Shown in pieces: positions 32,001 to 41,000 of a DNA stretch of 49,018 nt; the stretch's first letter is position 1; each line of letters starts with the position of its first letter. A program made the position numbers. The stretch is from assembly GCA_002478275.1 (NCBI GenBank), contig DLMY01000019.1, positions 1 to 49,018 on the forward strand, given 5' to 3'. This DNA comes from Actinobacteria bacterium UBA7524. Lineage in GTDB: Bacteria; Actinomycetota; Coriobacteriia; Anaerosomatales; UBA912.

Positions 32001-35000
32001 TGCCAAGGGATTCCCGATCCGGCCCCTTGTGATATTCGAGGTCGCCCCCGAGGCCGAATCGCCCGAGGAGGCGATCTCGTTGCTTCTTCCTGTCAGGGTC
32101 AACGTCTACGAAGAAGGCGGTTCGGTTACCGTCTCAGCGCTTCGACCCTCCGTCTTCGCGGCGATCTTTCCCGAGCGGGGGTTGGACGAACTCGCGATGG
32201 AGGTCGAGAAGGTGGTCGTGGCTATTGTGGACGGCGCGGTCGACCAGTCTGCTACTTGATGCAGGACGAGTACTTCAGGAACACGGCGATCGCCTCGTCA
32301 ATCAGATCGTCACGCGACTTCTCCTGGTCGTCCATGAGGCAGTGCTTCATGGAGTGTCCGATGATGTGCAGTCCCACCTGGTTGAGCGCGGACTTCGCGG
32401 CCATGATCTGGGTGAGGACGTCCTCGCATTCCTTGCCCGTCTCTATCATCGTCTGAAGGCCGCGGATCTGGCCCTCGAGCCGCTTCAGTCGGTTGACTAT
32501 CCTCTTGCGCTCCGCCGCATCGGCTTCTACCGCTTCTACGATCTCTTGCATCGTTGGCTCCATGTCTCCGGCTTGGGGTATCATGTGACGTTGCCCGGAC
32601 CATTATACCCCCAGGGGGTATGTCGGGCAAGCGTCACACCTAACGCTACGGTTGGGCGGGCTCATGGGTTATCGTCGGGATGACTCTTCGCAGATATCGA
32701 CGGATCGCATGAGGCGCATCCGGCGGGTGTTGTGGACGATTCTCCTGCTTAACGTGTCGGTCGCGGCGGCCAAGCTGGGCTGGGGTCTTGTCAGCGGCAG
32801 CATCGCCATGCAGGCTGATGGCTTCCATTCGATGTTCGACGGCACATCCAACGTCGTCGGGCTTGTTGGGATGTACCTTGCATCACGCCCGGCAGACCGC
32901 GATCACCCGTACGGTCACGGCAAGTACGAGACCTACGCCTCAGCTGCTATCGGAGCGATGTTGGCGTTGGCGGCGTGGCGGGTCGGAAGCGCTGCGGTGG
33001 CGCAGTTCGTCAACGGTGTCCAGCCGGCCAGAGTCGATGCGACCTCATTCGTGATCATGGCAGCTACGCTGGCCATCAACATAGGCGTGACGACATATGA
33101 ACGCCGTGTGGGGCGCGAGCTTCGCAGCGACATCCTCATCGCCGATGCCGCTCATACCGGGAGTGACGTGATGGTCAGTCTCGGGGTCATCGCCGGTCTG
33201 GTCGCGGTCAGGGCAGGCTACCCGCTGGCCGATCCCGCCATAGCGCTGCTGGTTTCACTTGCTATCGCCCGGACCGCATTCGGGGTCTTCCTCCATGCCG
33301 GGGAGACGCTCTCCGATACGGCTCGCATCGACCCCAAGGCCATATGTCGCGTCGTGCGCGGCGTGGACGGCGCACTCGGGTGTCACGGAGTGAGGACGCG
33401 CGGTTCGGCTTCCGAGGTCTACGTCGACCTGCATGTGCAGGTGGCCGCAGAGATGAGCGTGACGGCCGGTCACGCCGTCGCCGAGGCCACCGAGCGCGCC
33501 GTATGCGAAGCGTTCCCGGAGGTGGCGGACGTGATCGTCCACCTTGAGCCGTATGACGCCTATCAGATCTCTAAGACCGCCGAGGAGATCGATGCCGGAC
33601 TTGCGTGATCGCCCCGGCCAGCAGTGGAGGGGCTATGTCCTTGCGGTGCTGGCAGCCATATGCTGGGCTACGGGAGGTCTGGTCGCCAAGTGGTTGTTCG
33701 GGCCTCACGACGCGTCGGTCGGACGTTGGCTGCTGTCCGCGCCCGCGATCGAGGCGACACCCGCTGCGCTTGCGAGTGCTCGTGCGATGTTCGCTGCGGT
33801 CGTCCTGGCCATCGGTCTGGCCGTCGTGCGTCCTGCGTCGTTCCGGGTGCGCACGCGCGACCTGGGCTTCCTGGCCGTGTTCGGTGTGGCCGGTCTTGCG
33901 GGCATGCATGTCGCCTACTTCCAGGCGATCGCCCACGCCAACGTTGCGACCGCCATACTCCTGGAGTACCTCGCTCCCGTGATCGTTCTCGTATTCTCCG
34001 TTCTCGTCCTCGGGCACAGACCCGGGATGGTCTTGCCGGCCGGTGTAATCATGTCCGTCACCGGATGTGCGCTCGTCGTGGGTGCGTTTGGGGGTGAGGG
34101 GCTGAGCGTGTCCACCGCCGGTCTGTTCTGGGGGTTGACCGCCGCTGCCTTCTTCTCGCTCTACACCCTCTTGGGATCGTATGCGGCGGGGCGCTTCTCG
34201 CCGTGGACTCTACTGGTGTACGGGCTGGGGTTCGCCACCGTGTTCTGGCTCGTCTACCTCGGCGGTCCGGGTCCGATCATCGAGCTGGTGAGAGCGCCGG
34301 CGGGGCTGCTTGGCGTCGTGTATCTGGCCGTGTTCGCTACCATCGTGCCTTTCGCGGCGTTCCTGAAAGCTCTCCACTACATCGATGGCACGAAGGCGTT
34401 GATCGCCTCCACGCTGGAGCCGGCCGTGGCCGCTCTGGCCGCATTCGTCCTGTTCGCCGAGCACTTCACATGGCTCCAGATAGCCGGGGGAGTCCTGATC
34501 CTGGGAGCGATACTGGTGGTGCAAAGGCGGCCGGCCACGAGCACCATCACCGAGGTGCCTCCGGGAGTCTGAGGTCAGGTCACGAACCGCCCCGAACGTG
34601 GTATATAGTTTGCTAGGGCGCCCGTTTCTCGGGGTCCCTGGCGGACGGACTACGACGGGAGGTGTGGCATGGATCTCGTCCAGCGGCCGGAGCTCAAGCA
34701 GAAGGTCACGCTGTCTCCCCAGGTCTATCAGGGGCTGTCGATCCTCGCCATGCCCGTTGCCGAGCTTCAGCAGATGATAGAGGCAGAGCTCCTGGAGAAC
34801 CCCGTCCTTGAGGTCGAAGAGTTGGACGTCGAGCCTCCCGAAGACGCAGGCTCCGACGATGAGAAGGCAGCCTCAGAGGACGATCGGGCCTGGGACGAGT
34901 GGCTGGAGATGTACGACGACCTGGATTCCGTCGACACGAGCACCCCGAGGGACCCGAACGCCGAGTACGCGAATACCGAGGAGTTCGTGGGAGGCGTTCA

Positions 35001-38000: not shown

Positions 38001-41000
38001 TCCCGATCATCATGCTCACGGCCCACGGCAACGTCACCCAGGCAGTCGAGGCGATGAAGGCCGGGGCGACCGAGTACCTGACCAAGCCATTCGACCTCGA
38101 TGAACTCAAGATCGCCATAGACAAAGCGCTGCGGCTCAGCGATCTGGCAGCCGAAGTCGAGCGTCTGCGCGAGGAGCTCGATCGTGAGTACGACATCGAG
38201 GGGATCGTTGCCGCAGACCCTGCGATGATAGACATACTGGACCAGGTACGTCGGGTGGCGCCGACGAACGCGACAGTCATGATCTACGGCGAGTCGGGAA
38301 CCGGTAAGGAACTGGTGGCCCGGGCGATCCACGCCCTCTCGGAACGTTCCAGCGGTCCGTTCGTCTCCGTGAGTGCAGGCGCGTTGCCCGAGACGTTGCT
38401 CGAAAGCGAGCTGTTCGGTTACGAGAAGGGGGCGTTCACCGGTGCGATGACTGCGAAGCCCGGACGCTTCGAGATGGCCAACGGCGGGACGCTGTTCCTG
38501 GACGAGATCGGAGACATCACCCCCAACGTTCAGGTCAAGTTGCTCAGGGTCCTGCAGGAACGCAGCTTCGAGCGGCTTGGAGGCACGCGCTCCATAGAAG
38601 TGGATGTACGTGTCGTCGCGGCCACGAATCGCGATCTGCAACAACTCATCGCCGAAGGGTCATTCCGAGAGGACCTCTTCTATCGCCTTGCTGTGGTCCC
38701 GATCCAGCTGCCGGCGTTACGGCATAAGACGAGCGACATCCCGTTGTTGGTAGCGCATTTCCTGGAGAAGTACAGGGCCGGGAGCAAGAAACTGTCGCAA
38801 GAGGCGATGGAGGCGCTTGTCACCTACAAGTGGCCCGGCAACATCCGGGAGCTGGAGAACACCATCGAGCGTATCGTCATCCTGTCCCAGGGCGATGAGA
38901 TCGGCCTGACGGACCTGCCGGAAGAGGTACGGTTCGGCGGTACGTCGTGCCAGAAGGCGACGACAGGTATCGTCCTGCCGGAAGAGGGCTGTGATCTGGA
39001 AGAGGTCGAGCTTGACCTGCTCCGTCAGGCTCTCGACAGGTCGGGCGGAAGCATTCCGAAGGCGGCCAAGTTGGTTGGTTTGACGACCAAGACTCTCGAA
39101 GCGAGGATGACGCGCTTCGGACTGTAGCCGGCTTCCTCGCTCTGTCTGTCCTTGAAGTCACACCATCCGTCCGCCCGACGCTCACACGCTCGGTCCGTTG
39201 GCACACACCTTGCACTTTCAGGATGTCTGCCCGAACCGGCAACGGAGCGACGAAGGTGAACAGGTCTGACATCAAGGGGATAGTACCTATCCTGAGCGGC
39301 GCTGGGCTCGTCGTTGGTGTCGGGCTGGCCGGAGCGGCGTACCTCAACGGTAGCGACGGATTCGAGTTCTGTGTCGCCAGTACCCCCTTCGGCTGGGCGG
39401 CCACTATGCTGGCCGGATTGGTTCTGCTGGTCGTGAGCGTCGCTCTCGTGCGTTCCGCAGGTAAGGGGATGCGTTCTGTGGACGATGTGGCGCAGACCGC
39501 CGACTGCATGGCGTGCGGCAGCCCGATCGTTGAGGGCTGGCGAATCTGTCCACATTGTGGCGCGTTGCTCGAGTGTGAGGTGCGCGTGCCCACGCATCGC
39601 GAGGCCGTAGACGTGCCTCAGGCATGACCTGGCAGGCTCGCATGCGTTTCACGCAGGGTTTCCGGGGGGACTCTAAGGGCAGACGACTGTCCGCTCTCGT
39701 CCAGGATTCGGGAGGTTGAGACATGGGTGCGCTCGTAGAGGCACGCCTCAAGACCACGGGCATGCATTGCCGGTCGTGTTCCATGCTCGTCGACATGACA
39801 TTGGGGGACCTTGATGGTGTGGAAGACGTCACCACGGATCACGTGACCGGATCCACCTACGTTCGTTTCGACCCGGACAGGATCGGTGTCGAGCGGATGA
39901 TCGCCGAGATCAGGGCGGTCGGATATGATGCCGAAGAGCAGCGATGAGGTCGTGCACTTCGTGTAATGTTGCGAGTGAGACCGGATCCCACGGAAGGATC
40001 GCACAAGCATGGATGGTTCCTCGGTAGGCATCGCGGCAGCGTTCGCTGCGGGCGTCGTATCGTTCCTGTCCCCTTGCGTGCTGCCTCTGGTTCCCGGCTA
40101 TCTCTCCTTCATCACCGGCTATTCGGTCAGTGAGCTGTCGGAACGACGTGGTTCTGTGTGGTCGATCCTTTTGCCGAGCCTTCTGTTCGTGGCGGGCTTC
40201 ACCGTCGTGTTCGTGGGTCTGGGAGCTTCTGCGTCCATGCTTGGCGGATTCCTGCTGGAGTATCGCGGGATCTTGATCAAGGCCGCCGGCGTCCTTGTGT
40301 TCGCTCTGGGCTTCTTCATGCTCGGAATCGTCAAGGTGCCGTGGATGTATGGAGAGGCGCGCTTTGACATGGGTAAGACCAGGTCGTTCGGGTCGTTAGC
40401 CGCGCTCGTCATGGGTATGGCTTTCGCTTTCGGGTGGACTCCGTGCGTCGGGCCGATCCTCGGTTCGATTCTGACTTTGGCCGGCTCGAGCGGGGATGTC
40501 GGCTACGGAGCGTTCTTACTTGCGGTCTACTCGCTTGGTCTCGGGGTGCCCTTTGTGATCGTGGCCTTGGCTTTCAGCAGACTGCGCGGCGTTCTTGCAT
40601 GGATGAATCGGCACGCGCTGGTGGTCAACAGGGTCTCCGGCCTGTTGCTCATGGCGGTAGGAGCATTGATCTTCACCGGACAGCTGGGGAGGCTCGCCCT
40701 GTGGTTGACGGGCGTCCTTCCCGGACTCCGGATCTGATAGGTCGTCGACCGGCGATAGGGGGCTGGACCCAGTGGCGCGTTCGCCCAAACGGGAGTCGCT
40801 GGCTTCGAATCTCGCGTTGCTGATGTTGCTGGTCGTGACGGTCACGGTCACGGCGGTCAGCGCTGCTGCGCTCACAGGCGTCTTCGACCTGGCCAGTCGT
40901 CAGGCGGGAGCGCGGCAGGCTGCTTACGAGCAGGCGATAACGGGCGAGCTCAGAGTCCGCTTGGACGGTGCTGCTGGCGTCCTGGAGAGGGGTTCCTCGG

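Follow-up and report, generated by a model that had tools for sequence, protein, structure and literature searches.

A sigma-54 module and its candidate -24/-12 promoters in the actinobacterial order Anaerosomatales

The rpoN locus and its gene products

The window, i.e. the whole stretch of 49,018 nt that was analyzed, carries an rpoN gene followed by the genes of a sensor kinase and an NtrC-type activator and, behind a sigma-54-type promoter, an operon for a zinc-ribbon membrane protein (ZnR), an HMA protein and a CcdA/DsbD-type transporter (Table 1).

Table 1. Features of the rpoN locus (positions within the window)
Feature	Position	Strand	Evidence
CDF cation-efflux gene, conserved upstream neighbour	32652..33608	+	Pfam
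EamA transporter gene, conserved upstream neighbour	33544..34572	+	Pfam
Sigma-54-type element TGGTATATAGTTTGCT, 54 nt 5' of rpoN	34599..34614	+	Conservation; PWM rank 2
rpoN, sigma-54 factor, 466 aa	34669..36069	+	Pfam, TIGR02395, RpoN box
NtrB/AtoS-like sensor kinase (membrane N-terminal region, PAS, HisKA, HATPase)	36066..37654	+	Pfam; ORF in relatives
NtrC-family enhancer-binding protein (REC with D53, AAA+ with GAFTGA, HTH_8)	37651..39127	+	Pfam, motifs, relatives
Sigma-54-type promoter TGGCACACACCTTGCA (TGGCAC-N5-TTGCA)	39199..39214	+	Motif, conservation, PWM rank 1
ZnR, small two-helix membrane protein whose C-terminus forms a zinc ribbon (C-x2-CG ... WRxCPxCG)	39256..39627	+	Pfam Zn_ribbon; alignment
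CopZ-like HMA metal-binding protein (GMHCRSC)	39723..39947	+	Pfam HMA, motif
CcdA/DsbD-type membrane thiol-disulfide transporter (SPCVLP, TPCVGP)	40009..40737	+	Pfam DsbD_TM
HAMP-GAF-GAF-PP2C (SpoIIE-type) phosphatase, conserved downstream neighbour	40772..43996	+	Pfam, synteny

The full-length RpoN claimed in a preliminary description of this DNA is borne out by the domains Sigma54_AID (residues 5-49), CBD (103-291) and DBD (307-465), which follow one another in this order (Pfam), and by the NCBIfam equivalog TIGR02395, which the whole protein passes with 392 bits (cut-off 277). The RpoN box, a marker of sigma-54 with the consensus ARRTVAKYR, is present as ARRTVAKYR at residues 444-452 of the translation, near the C-terminus. 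The order of Coriobacteriia concerned goes by the names Anaerosomatales or OPB41. Sigma54_DBD was found in 139 of the 146 genomes of this order and is rare elsewhere in the class (15 of 255 other sampled genomes); in a phylum sample of 401, six genomes of other classes had it, one of them below the cut-off. The closest RpoN loci belong to Coriobacteriia, Actinomycetota and Anaerosomatales MAGs, RpoN identity ranges from 65 to 87% across 25 families, and the synteny around the module is kept across 30 wide loci from these 25 families, with the CDF/EamA pair upstream of rpoN in most of them.

The kinase start (ATG 36066, with AAGGAG in front) overlaps the rpoN stop as ATGA, and the activator start (ATG 37651) overlaps the kinase stop in the same way; rpoN, kinase and activator are one translationally coupled operon. 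This MAG contains about 130 runs of N (scaffold gaps), many of them flanked by duplicates of about 23 nt. The kinase had been described as a fragment and the receiver of the activator as cut by such a run, and neither description holds. The gap at 37897-38000 in the activator gene is, together with its 23-nt duplicate, an assembly artefact: a Logan contig of run X1, probably the source run, connects 37873 to 38001, leaving out 127 nt, which restores the reading frame and yields a full receiver. The Logan contig search did not bridge the kinase gap (36971-37166), within which about 45 HisKA codons fall, but this too is a scaffold gap. In relatives a single uninterrupted ORF of 510-515 aa encodes the kinase, HisKA included.

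The activator, 448-450 aa long in relatives, matches Sigma54_activat (PF00158, 1e-71), AAA_lid_14 and HTH_8, and the loop EKGAFTGA and the Walker A motif GESGTGKE can be read in its sequence; the orthologue of genome G079 has Response_reg (1.5e-34) together with HTH_8. An orthologue is present in 141 of the 146 genomes of the order at 72-86% identity. As had been proposed, it is an NtrC-type protein and the single enhancer-binding protein of this genome, where one rpoN and one true activator were counted; a second activator, of about 52% identity, occurs in part of the genomes of the order. The best NCBIfam models for the G079 orthologues of kinase and activator were AtoS/AtoC and ZraS/ZraR, all of whose equivalog cut-offs were missed (AtoS 359 vs 646, ZraS 209 vs 479, AtoC 499 vs 714 and ZraR 413 vs 760).

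The zinc-ribbon, HMA and DsbD/CcdA genes are where they had been reported. ZnR, the first gene of the operon, has invariant cysteines in the alignment and is annotated only as 'hypothetical' in the protein atlas. Its start is most likely GTG 39256, which has GGAG in front, rather than ATG 39223, which lies upstream of the predicted transcription start near 39225. The HMA protein scores 44 bits in Pfam HMA (cut-off 24.8) and has a motif of the MxCxxC type, with the CopZ and UxxU models below their cut-offs. The transporter (PF02683, 64 bits) has one cysteine in each of two transmembrane helices. No terminator-like site was found in the spacers between ZnR, HMA, DsbD and phosphatase genes, and the single such site listed inside the operon (39398-39415) falls within the ZnR reading frame. 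In relatives, the operon also has genes for a CopA-type ATPase and for cupredoxin/DsbD_2 proteins.

Conserved -24/-12 elements at the locus and elsewhere in the genome

The promoter TGGCACACACCTTGCA, upstream of a gene on its own strand, is the sole exact match to TGGCAC-N5-TTGCW within the window, where 0.04 are expected by chance; at least one match occurred in 4 of 100 shuffles of the window. Its conservation is far wider than the eight of 13 relatives' loci first reported. Among the unique evaluable genomes pooled from loci L006-L035 and the wide loci, 46 of 49, representing 22 of 25 families, have it 4-81 nt past the activator gene (28 of the 29 loci L006-L035 with downstream sequence and 27 of the 30 wide loci), in a spacer that is otherwise unconserved. 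It is missing in locus L041 (family f6) and in genome G059 (f10). In locus L046 (f17) the promoter is 2.3 kb away, again directly 5' of ZnR; it travels with this gene.

Four further conserved -24/-12 elements were found in the genome, so that the "small, locally encoded regulon" of the preliminary description does not stand. One of them precedes rpoN itself: 26 of 27 wide loci have TGGTAY-N5-TTGCW at the same position, and the rest of this spacer has no other conserved stretch. The element TGGTATATAGTTTGCT overlaps a sigma-A -10-like box (GGTATAnT), and we infer that rpoN may be autoregulated through it, with either sign. A second element was present before clpC in 25 of 27 evaluable loci and missing in G143 and G144, both of the same family as this genome. 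It is located about 120 nt before the gene, with a heat-shock-type palindrome on one side and a sigma-A -10-like box on the other, and a conserved GGGTATACT follows about 40 nt downstream. The palindrome, similar to TGAGT-N7-ACTCA, was seen before clpC in most loci and also before groES in this genome. HAIR, the HspR operator, is an inverted repeat CTTGAGT-N7-ACTCAAG found before heat-shock genes.

The remaining two elements stand 12-14 nt before two paralogous small RNAs of about 95 nt that are unlinked to the locus. One is the second exact match of the genome (C19:27146-27161), so the statement that only the ZnR promoter is intergenic has to be dropped. YGGCAY-N5-TTGCT precedes the small RNA at all 35 loci, which come from 31 genomes, and the hairpin starts 12-14 nt after the C of the -12 part. 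A sigma-54 promoter would be expected to start transcription 11-13 nt after the GC, which this spacing supports indirectly. Covariance model R1 detected the RNA in 143 of the 146 genomes of the order, in one or two copies each, and the joint pattern of promoter and RNA occurred in 125 of the 146, while being sparse in the reversed control. Each RNA consists of a hairpin and a terminator, both with C-rich loops. In the alignment, 95.2% of cells are paired (47-55% in slid controls), compensatory changes are seen in seven of 19 pairs, and none of 500 shuffles attained the observed value. Folds, alignment and pair counts agree on two hairpins with loops of six or more C. The two loci are the two best matches to RF01066 in the whole genome, and the alignment of one covers all 75 positions of the model, although at scores of 31.6 and 16.6 bits neither is a match at the gathering score of 47.

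The five elements, i.e. those before the ZnR operon, the two small RNAs, clpC and rpoN, are the top intergenic PWM matches of this genome. There was no excess of PWM matches above 16 bits genome-wide (eight, vs three to nine in shuffles), and five relatives gave 26 strict matches vs 17 for the reversed control. Because PWM counts do not exceed those of shuffles, the regulon rests on conservation and not on enrichment.

Genome G010 (95% complete) is a natural knockout in which the -24/-12 elements were lost together with the module. The segment from rpoN through kinase, activator and ZnR to HMA is deleted, EamA abuts DsbD on one contig, neither rpoN nor activator was found in the genome, and clpC has no -24/-12 element. 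At its single small RNA, TTGC is changed to GCGC and CATAAT stands 7 nt upstream of the RNA. Genome G084 (91% complete) showed no rpoN or activator, yet its clpC and both of its small RNAs retain the motifs; G083, of the same genus, has the module.

Candidate regulon and competing explanations

The sigma-54 observation of the preliminary description, that a Coriobacteriia-type actinobacterium has a complete system with RpoN, one kinase/activator pair and a conserved -24/-12 promoter, is real and stronger than first described. Actinobacteria are said to be a phylum without sigma-54; a whole order of these high-GC bacteria keeps a factor that looks as if it works. Judging from sequence conservation, we consider it probable (roughly 80%) that this is a functional sigma-54 module with at least five -24/-12 elements, kept across the order. 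In response to a signal, the kinase would phosphorylate D53 of the activator, whose AAA+ ring would then open closed complexes of sigma-54 at a limited number of promoters of the -24/-12 type: those of the ZnR-HMA-CcdA operon, the two small RNAs, clpC and rpoN itself. The gene content suggests a response to metal/thiol and protein-quality stress, and the small RNAs presumably pair with G-rich ribosome-binding sites. A bolder version is offered only tentatively. It holds that a stress regulon in the order has the NtrC-type two-component system and sigma-54 as its master switch and the two 6C-like anti-Shine-Dalgarno RNAs as its main output, a circuit of the LuxO-Qrr kind in Gram-positives, alongside ClpC and the metal/thiol membrane operon, and that the lineage which deleted the module moved its small-RNA promoter from the sigma-54 to the sigma-A type. 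If true, a 6C-type RNA would have been assigned a regulator for the first time, and nature would have provided an example of one promoter class giving way to another.

Chlamydia (CtcBC) and Borrelia (Rrp2-RpoN) are known to have minimal sigma-54 systems with a single activator. This precedent, the single activator of the present genome, and the fact that the local promoter is both the best PWM match and the only exact one in the window would suit a functional system that serves the ZnR-HMA-DsbD operon alone, as first proposed. We regard such a restriction as improbable in view of the elements at fixed positions before small RNAs (35/35), clpC (25/27) and rpoN (26/27), and of their loss along with the module in G010. 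Less easily dismissed, if still rather unlikely, is the idea that sigma-54 holoenzyme merely parks at the elements before rpoN and clpC and competes with overlapping or adjacent sigma-A promoters there, independently of the activator. In some proteobacteria, rpoN is known to be under negative autoregulation. With sigma-A -10-like boxes overlapping or next to them, these two elements may serve to repress transcription instead of driving it: GGTATAnT or GGGnATAnT boxes lie within or directly against the rpoN element, and the conserved stretch downstream of the clpC element points the same way. An enhancer site is also lacking in three simple searches. The HTH_8 domain of the activator is conserved, and no binding site was found near the target promoters, be it as a dyad shared among promoter classes, as constraint on synonymous sites over the final 70 codons of the activator gene or as a conserved block before the rpoN element; a degenerate or distant site may escape methods as simple as these three. 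Against parking, elements of the same type precede the small-RNA hairpins by exactly one start-site distance, a position at which they would have to drive transcription.

The missing enhancer site would equally fit a relic sigma-54 without targets, the 16-mers being operators of another DNA-binding protein, and so would the motifs retained in G084 without a detected rpoN. This is very improbable, as the invariant positions coincide exactly with GG and TTGC in the consensus of sigma-54, at fixed spacing and in four unrelated contexts, RpoN (65-87% identity) and activator (72-86%) are under strong constraint across 25 families, the motifs went with the module in G010, and G083, of the same genus as G084, has the module. 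In a fragmented MAG (60 contigs, 83% complete), one could suspect that this contig was binned wrongly and comes from outside the actinobacteria; with a contamination of 0.58%, the same 12-kb synteny in 25 families of the order on contigs of up to 2.7 Mb, one-contig genomes included, and matching promoters of the small RNAs and clpC, which are unlinked and lie on other contigs, we give this next to no credence.

Relation to known systems

The functional module favoured here resembles AtoSC, ZraSR and GlrKR of E. coli in pairing a PAS-HisKA-HATPase kinase with a REC-AAA+(GAFTGA)-HTH_8 activator. In E. coli, zraP adjoins zraSR, and here too the target operon is an immediate neighbour of the regulator genes, its first gene encoding a small envelope protein. 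In contrast to these systems, the kinase/activator operon is headed by rpoN and belongs to an actinobacterium, the kinase is without an obvious extracytoplasmic sensor domain, all equivalog cut-offs are missed and an enhancer site was not found. LuxO-Qrr of Vibrio and GlrR-GlmY of E. coli are examples of sigma-54-dependent small RNAs. As in these, an NtrC-type regulator and sigma-54 are predicted to drive paralogous small RNAs with TGGCAC-N5-TTGC one start-site distance upstream, but the RNAs of the present order, whose dependence on the activator is putative, resemble 6C RNA in their C-rich loops and have no sequence relationship with Qrr or GlmY.

The 6C RNA of Actinobacteria is RF01066, known as 6C/B11 in M. 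tuberculosis (PMC6486639). It shares with the RNAs described here the two hairpins, the loop runs of six or more C and a high-GC Gram-positive lineage, while the latter stay below the gathering score, occur as two paralogues per genome and have sigma-54-type promoters, which would be impossible in actinobacteria without rpoN. Francke 2011 (PMC3162934) notes one activator in Borrelia and Chlamydia. With its small genome (about 2 Mb), a single sigma-54, in most cases a single activator, and few promoters, the present system is similar to these two, but differs from them in phylum and targets and in the second activator that some genomes of the order possess.

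The sigma-54 module and the ZnR operon

The metagenome-assembled genome of UBA7524 (1.81 Mb, 60 contigs, 63.5% G+C, 83% complete, 0.58% contamination) carries every gene between 34.6 and 44 kb of the window, which is contig C33, on the plus strand. The ATG of the kinase gene overlaps the rpoN stop codon as ATGA and the same arrangement was observed between the activator ATG and the kinase stop codon, so that rpoN, kinase and activator form one translationally coupled unit. The N-terminus of the kinase lies in the membrane and its PAS domain in the cytoplasm.

The assembly contains approximately 130 runs of N (20,412 N), many of them with a duplicate of about 23 nt on both sides. 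They arose where the scaffold connects contigs with overlapping ends, so that reading frames are broken artificially in many genes of this genome. One run, at C36:32001-32643, has 643 N, the same number as the bases reported as withheld for the assembly. The kinase, previously taken for a fragment, has about 45 HisKA codons hidden by the run at 36971-37166, which was not bridged by any contig of the public sequencing run described below, while in relatives it is encoded by one intact ORF of 510-515 aa that includes HisKA (activator, 448-450 aa). The run in the activator gene (37897-38000) is flanked by such a duplicate of about 23 nt, and deletion of the 104 N plus 23 nt restores the frame. 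A contig from a public run joins 37873 to 38001 with exactly 127 nt skipped, although this was the only public run holding this DNA and is possibly the source sample, and thus not independent. A search of public sequencing runs listed this DNA run and no RNA run. Given this junction the receiver domain of the activator (D9/D10, D53), which had been considered to be cut, is intact.

Features of the sigma-54 system in the UBA7524 genome (positions without a contig name refer to the window)
Feature	Position	Strand	Remarks
rpoN sigma-54 element	34599-34614		starts where the locus of the preliminary description starts
rpoN	34669-36069	+	three sigma-54 domains; NCBIfam equivalog model passed; ARRTVAKYR present
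Kinase gene	ATG 36066	+	behind AAGGAG; PAS/HATPase; next after rpoN
NtrC-type activator gene	ATG 37651	+	GESGTGKE, GAFTGA, HTH_8; next after kinase
ZnR sigma-54 promoter TGGCACACACCTTGCA	39199-39214	+	single exact match in window; chance expectation 0.04
Phosphatase gene	40772-43996	+	1074 aa, HAMP-GAF-GAF-PP2C (SpoIIE-type); after DsbD
clpC sigma-54 element GGGCACACCGATTGCT	C9:54796-54811		
Small RNA copy 1	C19:27146-27271 (L092:647-772)		including promoter; upstream of WYL/PafBC-like gene
Small RNA copy 2	C1:8249-8351; with promoter 8249-8377 (L093, L096)	minus	behind CGGCATGAAGCTTGCT

The operon behind the activator gene begins with ZnR, a membrane protein with two helices and, at its C-terminus, a zinc ribbon in which C-x2-CG...W-x2-CPxCG is invariant, followed by a CopZ-like HMA protein (GMHCRSC) and a CcdA/DsbD membrane protein (both cysteines present). 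The transcription start predicted about 12 nt past the GC of the ZnR promoter lies near 39225, and ATG 39223 can therefore not be the ZnR start codon. A start at GTG 39256, behind GGAG, fits as a prediction, and the GGAG...GTG arrangement is also found in relatives. In most families of the order the phosphatase gene has been retained immediately after DsbD. A terminator scan for the end of the operon yielded no convincing candidate, the sole terminator-like site in the operon being located inside the ZnR reading frame. With regard to ZnR function, the protein atlas clusters were annotated just as 'hypothetical zinc-ribbon' (all scores <0.9) and no NCBIfam model matched, while complex prediction of ZnR with the kinase membrane domain gave a score of 0.01 against a mark of 0.32, which speaks neither for nor against binding.

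Conservation of the module and the ZnR promoter

An activator orthologue with 72-86% identity was detected in 141 of the 146 species-level genomes of the order Anaerosomatales (25 families), and Sigma54_DBD in 139. The gene order CDF, EamA, rpoN, kinase, activator, ZnR, HMA, DsbD, PP2C was common to 30 wide loci representing all families, with lineage-specific inserts between ZnR/HMA and DsbD (a DsbD_2-cupredoxin fusion, cupredoxin-like proteins and a CopA-type ATPase). TGGCAY-N5-TTGCW was present 4-81 nt past the activator stop codon in 28/29 loci of a first set (L020, without downstream sequence, not counted) and 27/30 of a second; as 10 genomes were common to both sets, this corresponds to 46 of 49 unique evaluable genomes and 22 of 25 families. 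The surrounding spacer differs in length and sequence, just the -24/-12 positions being conserved, and apart from L046 the promoter is the sole strict match on both strands in each locus of about 12 kb that has one. Closer examination of the exceptions revealed that L041 (family f6) and genome G059 (f10) are without both ZnR and promoter, while in L046 (f17) the promoter is located 2.3 kb away, 65 nt upstream of a relocated ZnR-HMA pair. Since the promoter is lost or moves together with ZnR, it belongs to this gene.

Some genomes exhibited a second, longer activator paralogue of 519-774 aa with about 50-54% identity (e.g. G118:C1:1016371-1017273, G119:C24 and G082:C9), which the same activator search did not find in the UBA7524 genome.

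Sigma-54 elements at small RNAs, clpC and rpoN

The preliminary description had proposed a complete, conserved sigma-54 system with a small, locally encoded regulon. The first part is borne out by the presence of the module throughout the order and by the conserved ZnR promoter, while the reach of the system was drawn too narrowly, as further conserved elements are located at two small RNAs, clpC and rpoN. The second exact match in the genome (C19:27146-27161), initially set aside, actually precedes a conserved small RNA. Strict matches in five relatives numbered 26 versus 17 in a reversed control, and one or two per genome preceded a common sequence. This element of about 95 nt begins 12-14 nt past the -12 C and folds into an interrupted hairpin with a C-rich loop of about 15 nt and a terminator hairpin, the loop of which is likewise rich in C. 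In a search with a covariance model derived from seven copies, 143 of the 146 genomes of the order contained the element, either once or twice. Pairing over 33 aligned copies amounted to 95.2% of cells compared with 47-55% when the partner was slid, and 7/19 pairs were changed on both sides, in an alignment that was fitted to the covariance model and thus favours the structure. YGGCAY-N5-TTGCT was found at a fixed distance in 35/35 small-RNA loci (31 genomes, 12 families), three of which (L106, L122 and L123) were missed by the first regular expression and matched by a broader one; promoter and RNA 5' motif occurred jointly in 125/146 genomes. Two paralogue types, A and B, were distinguished, with a WYL gene after type A in 17/22 loci.

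No Rfam family matched the small RNA at gathering score. The two best genome-wide matches of the 6C model (6C RNA, PMC6486639) were both small-RNA loci, with 31.6 and 16.6 bits compared to a gathering score of 47, and because they score below this value we refer to the RNAs as 6C-like rather than 6C. A third recurring element, GGCACC(A/T)TG(C/T)TTGCTCGAA...GTGCGACC, was noted once per genome in genera g16 and g17 (e.g. G032:C1:125551-125588) and possibly represents another paralogue of the small RNA, again preceded by a sigma-54-type promoter.

Upstream of clpC, (T/G)GGCAY-N5-TTGCT was present at -109 to -129 in 25 of 27 evaluable loci, not counting L143, L148 and L150, where the regular expression gave no clpC start. 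A TGAGT-N7-ACTCA-type palindrome lies 2-5 nt upstream of the element, and a conserved GGGTATACT follows about 40 nt downstream of it. In the family of UBA7524, the clpC leaders L128 (G144) and L129 (G143) are without a -24/-12 element at the usual place and exhibit CGGCAC-N4-TTGCT, with spacing one base short, downstream of a TATACT box. The palindrome also occurs upstream of groES in the UBA7524 genome, adjoining a CIRCE-like repeat. An enhancer role for the GAGY...RCTC palindrome was rejected, as it is specific to clpC among the promoter classes and shared with groES; being common to clpC and groES, it probably represents a heat-shock operator. The region upstream of groES-groEL (C16:8755-8773; L237, minus strand, ~2190-2290) contains a HAIR-like palindrome, a TTGAAC/TAGAAT promoter and the CIRCE-like repeat TGGCACTC-N9-GAGTGCTAG; a TGGCAC within it is not a sigma-54 site.

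TGGTAY-N5-TTGCW was observed upstream of rpoN in 26/27 wide loci (L045, L047 and L048, which were too short, excluded), and alignment of the spacer before rpoN showed no conservation beyond this element. A sigma-A -10-like box lies within the element or directly next to it, so that the element may either drive or block transcription. With a weight matrix of all four promoter classes, the five sites were the top intergenic matches of the UBA7524 genome, although sites of this genome had themselves been used in building the matrix. Genome-wide enrichment of motif matches over shuffled sequences was not seen, and a one-mismatch site in the window (29108-29123) was dropped at <13 bits in the matrix scan. 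Other strict matches in relatives were located upstream of genes for a PAS protein, HemA, a PHP protein, an M50 protease and two pectate-lyase-like proteins, and were not counted as regulon. A strict TGGCAC-N5-TTGCA is located about 215 nt before each of the two tandem pectate-lyase/beta-helix genes of G093 (C1:247558 and 250209; L069, L074), which may be lineage-specific regulon additions.

Module loss, regulon content and comparison with known systems

Genome G010 (95% complete; L250, C44:5500-14539; L248; L247) is without rpoN and a true activator, and DsbD directly follows EamA on one contig; it has thus deleted the block rpoN-kinase-activator-ZnR-HMA. The palindrome of the clpC leader has been kept in this genome while the -24/-12 element is absent, and TGGTGCATAATGCGCA stands before the one small RNA, where TTGC has changed to GCGC and a CATAAT box lies 7 nt ahead of the RNA. 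Absence of the module is accompanied here by unlinked promoters that are lost or converted, which makes this a natural deletion lineage for the dependent promoters. In G084 (91% complete) rpoN and activator were not detected, yet both small-RNA motifs and the clpC motif are kept; the module is present in G083 of the same genus, and we assume an assembly gap in G084.

The predicted regulon includes the 6C-like small RNAs, clpC and the system's own operon. A role in metal, thiol or proteotoxic stress may be proposed from its content (a CxxC metallochaperone, CcdA and ClpC, together with the CopA and cupredoxin genes of relatives). The HTH_8 of the activator is conserved, and searches for its binding site gave no dyad (4+4, gap 0-14) common to three promoter classes relative to genomic background, nor any signal in the entropy of third codon positions over the last 70 codons of the activator gene or in the aligned spacers before rpoN.

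The closest RpoN loci in named genomes (65-87% identity) came from records titled as Coriobacteriia, Actinomycetota or Anaerosomatales MAGs, some with automatic 'Eubacteriales' labels, and the remaining ones had at most 38% identity among the loci recovered with the search patterns used. Among 255 sampled genomes from the rest of the class, 15 had Sigma54_DBD, and a single family accounted for 12 of the 15. A sample of the phylum gave 13/401, consisting of UBA7524, four members of its order, two further members of its class and six genomes from other classes, one of which scored below the cut-off. Family f63 of another class (G470:C3, L238; G456:C25, L239) is a second lineage of the phylum with rpoN, kinase and activator in the same gene order (59-62% identity). 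A gene for a 400-aa permease-like protein comes next, and a strict -24/-12 match was absent over 1.5 kb.

The literature searched contained nothing on sigma-54 in Coriobacteriia (a match for rpoN and Eggerthella concerned another topic), and a term search of the main text of the article describing the order (PMC9686372) found neither 'sigma' nor 'rpoN'. As far as this literature reaches, the proposed links between sigma-54 on the one hand and ClpC and 6C-like small RNAs on the other are new. Sigma-54 is strongly constrained across the whole order, the regulon is of a size that would allow a complete solution, and since the order has cultured members (PMC9686372), the predictions are open to direct testing. 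The sigma-54 system has been stated to be absent from Actinobacteria in a passage of Francke 2011 (PMC3162934); as a kind of system, the combination of sigma-54 and an NtrC-type pair is familiar, and it is encountered here in an unexpected phylum.
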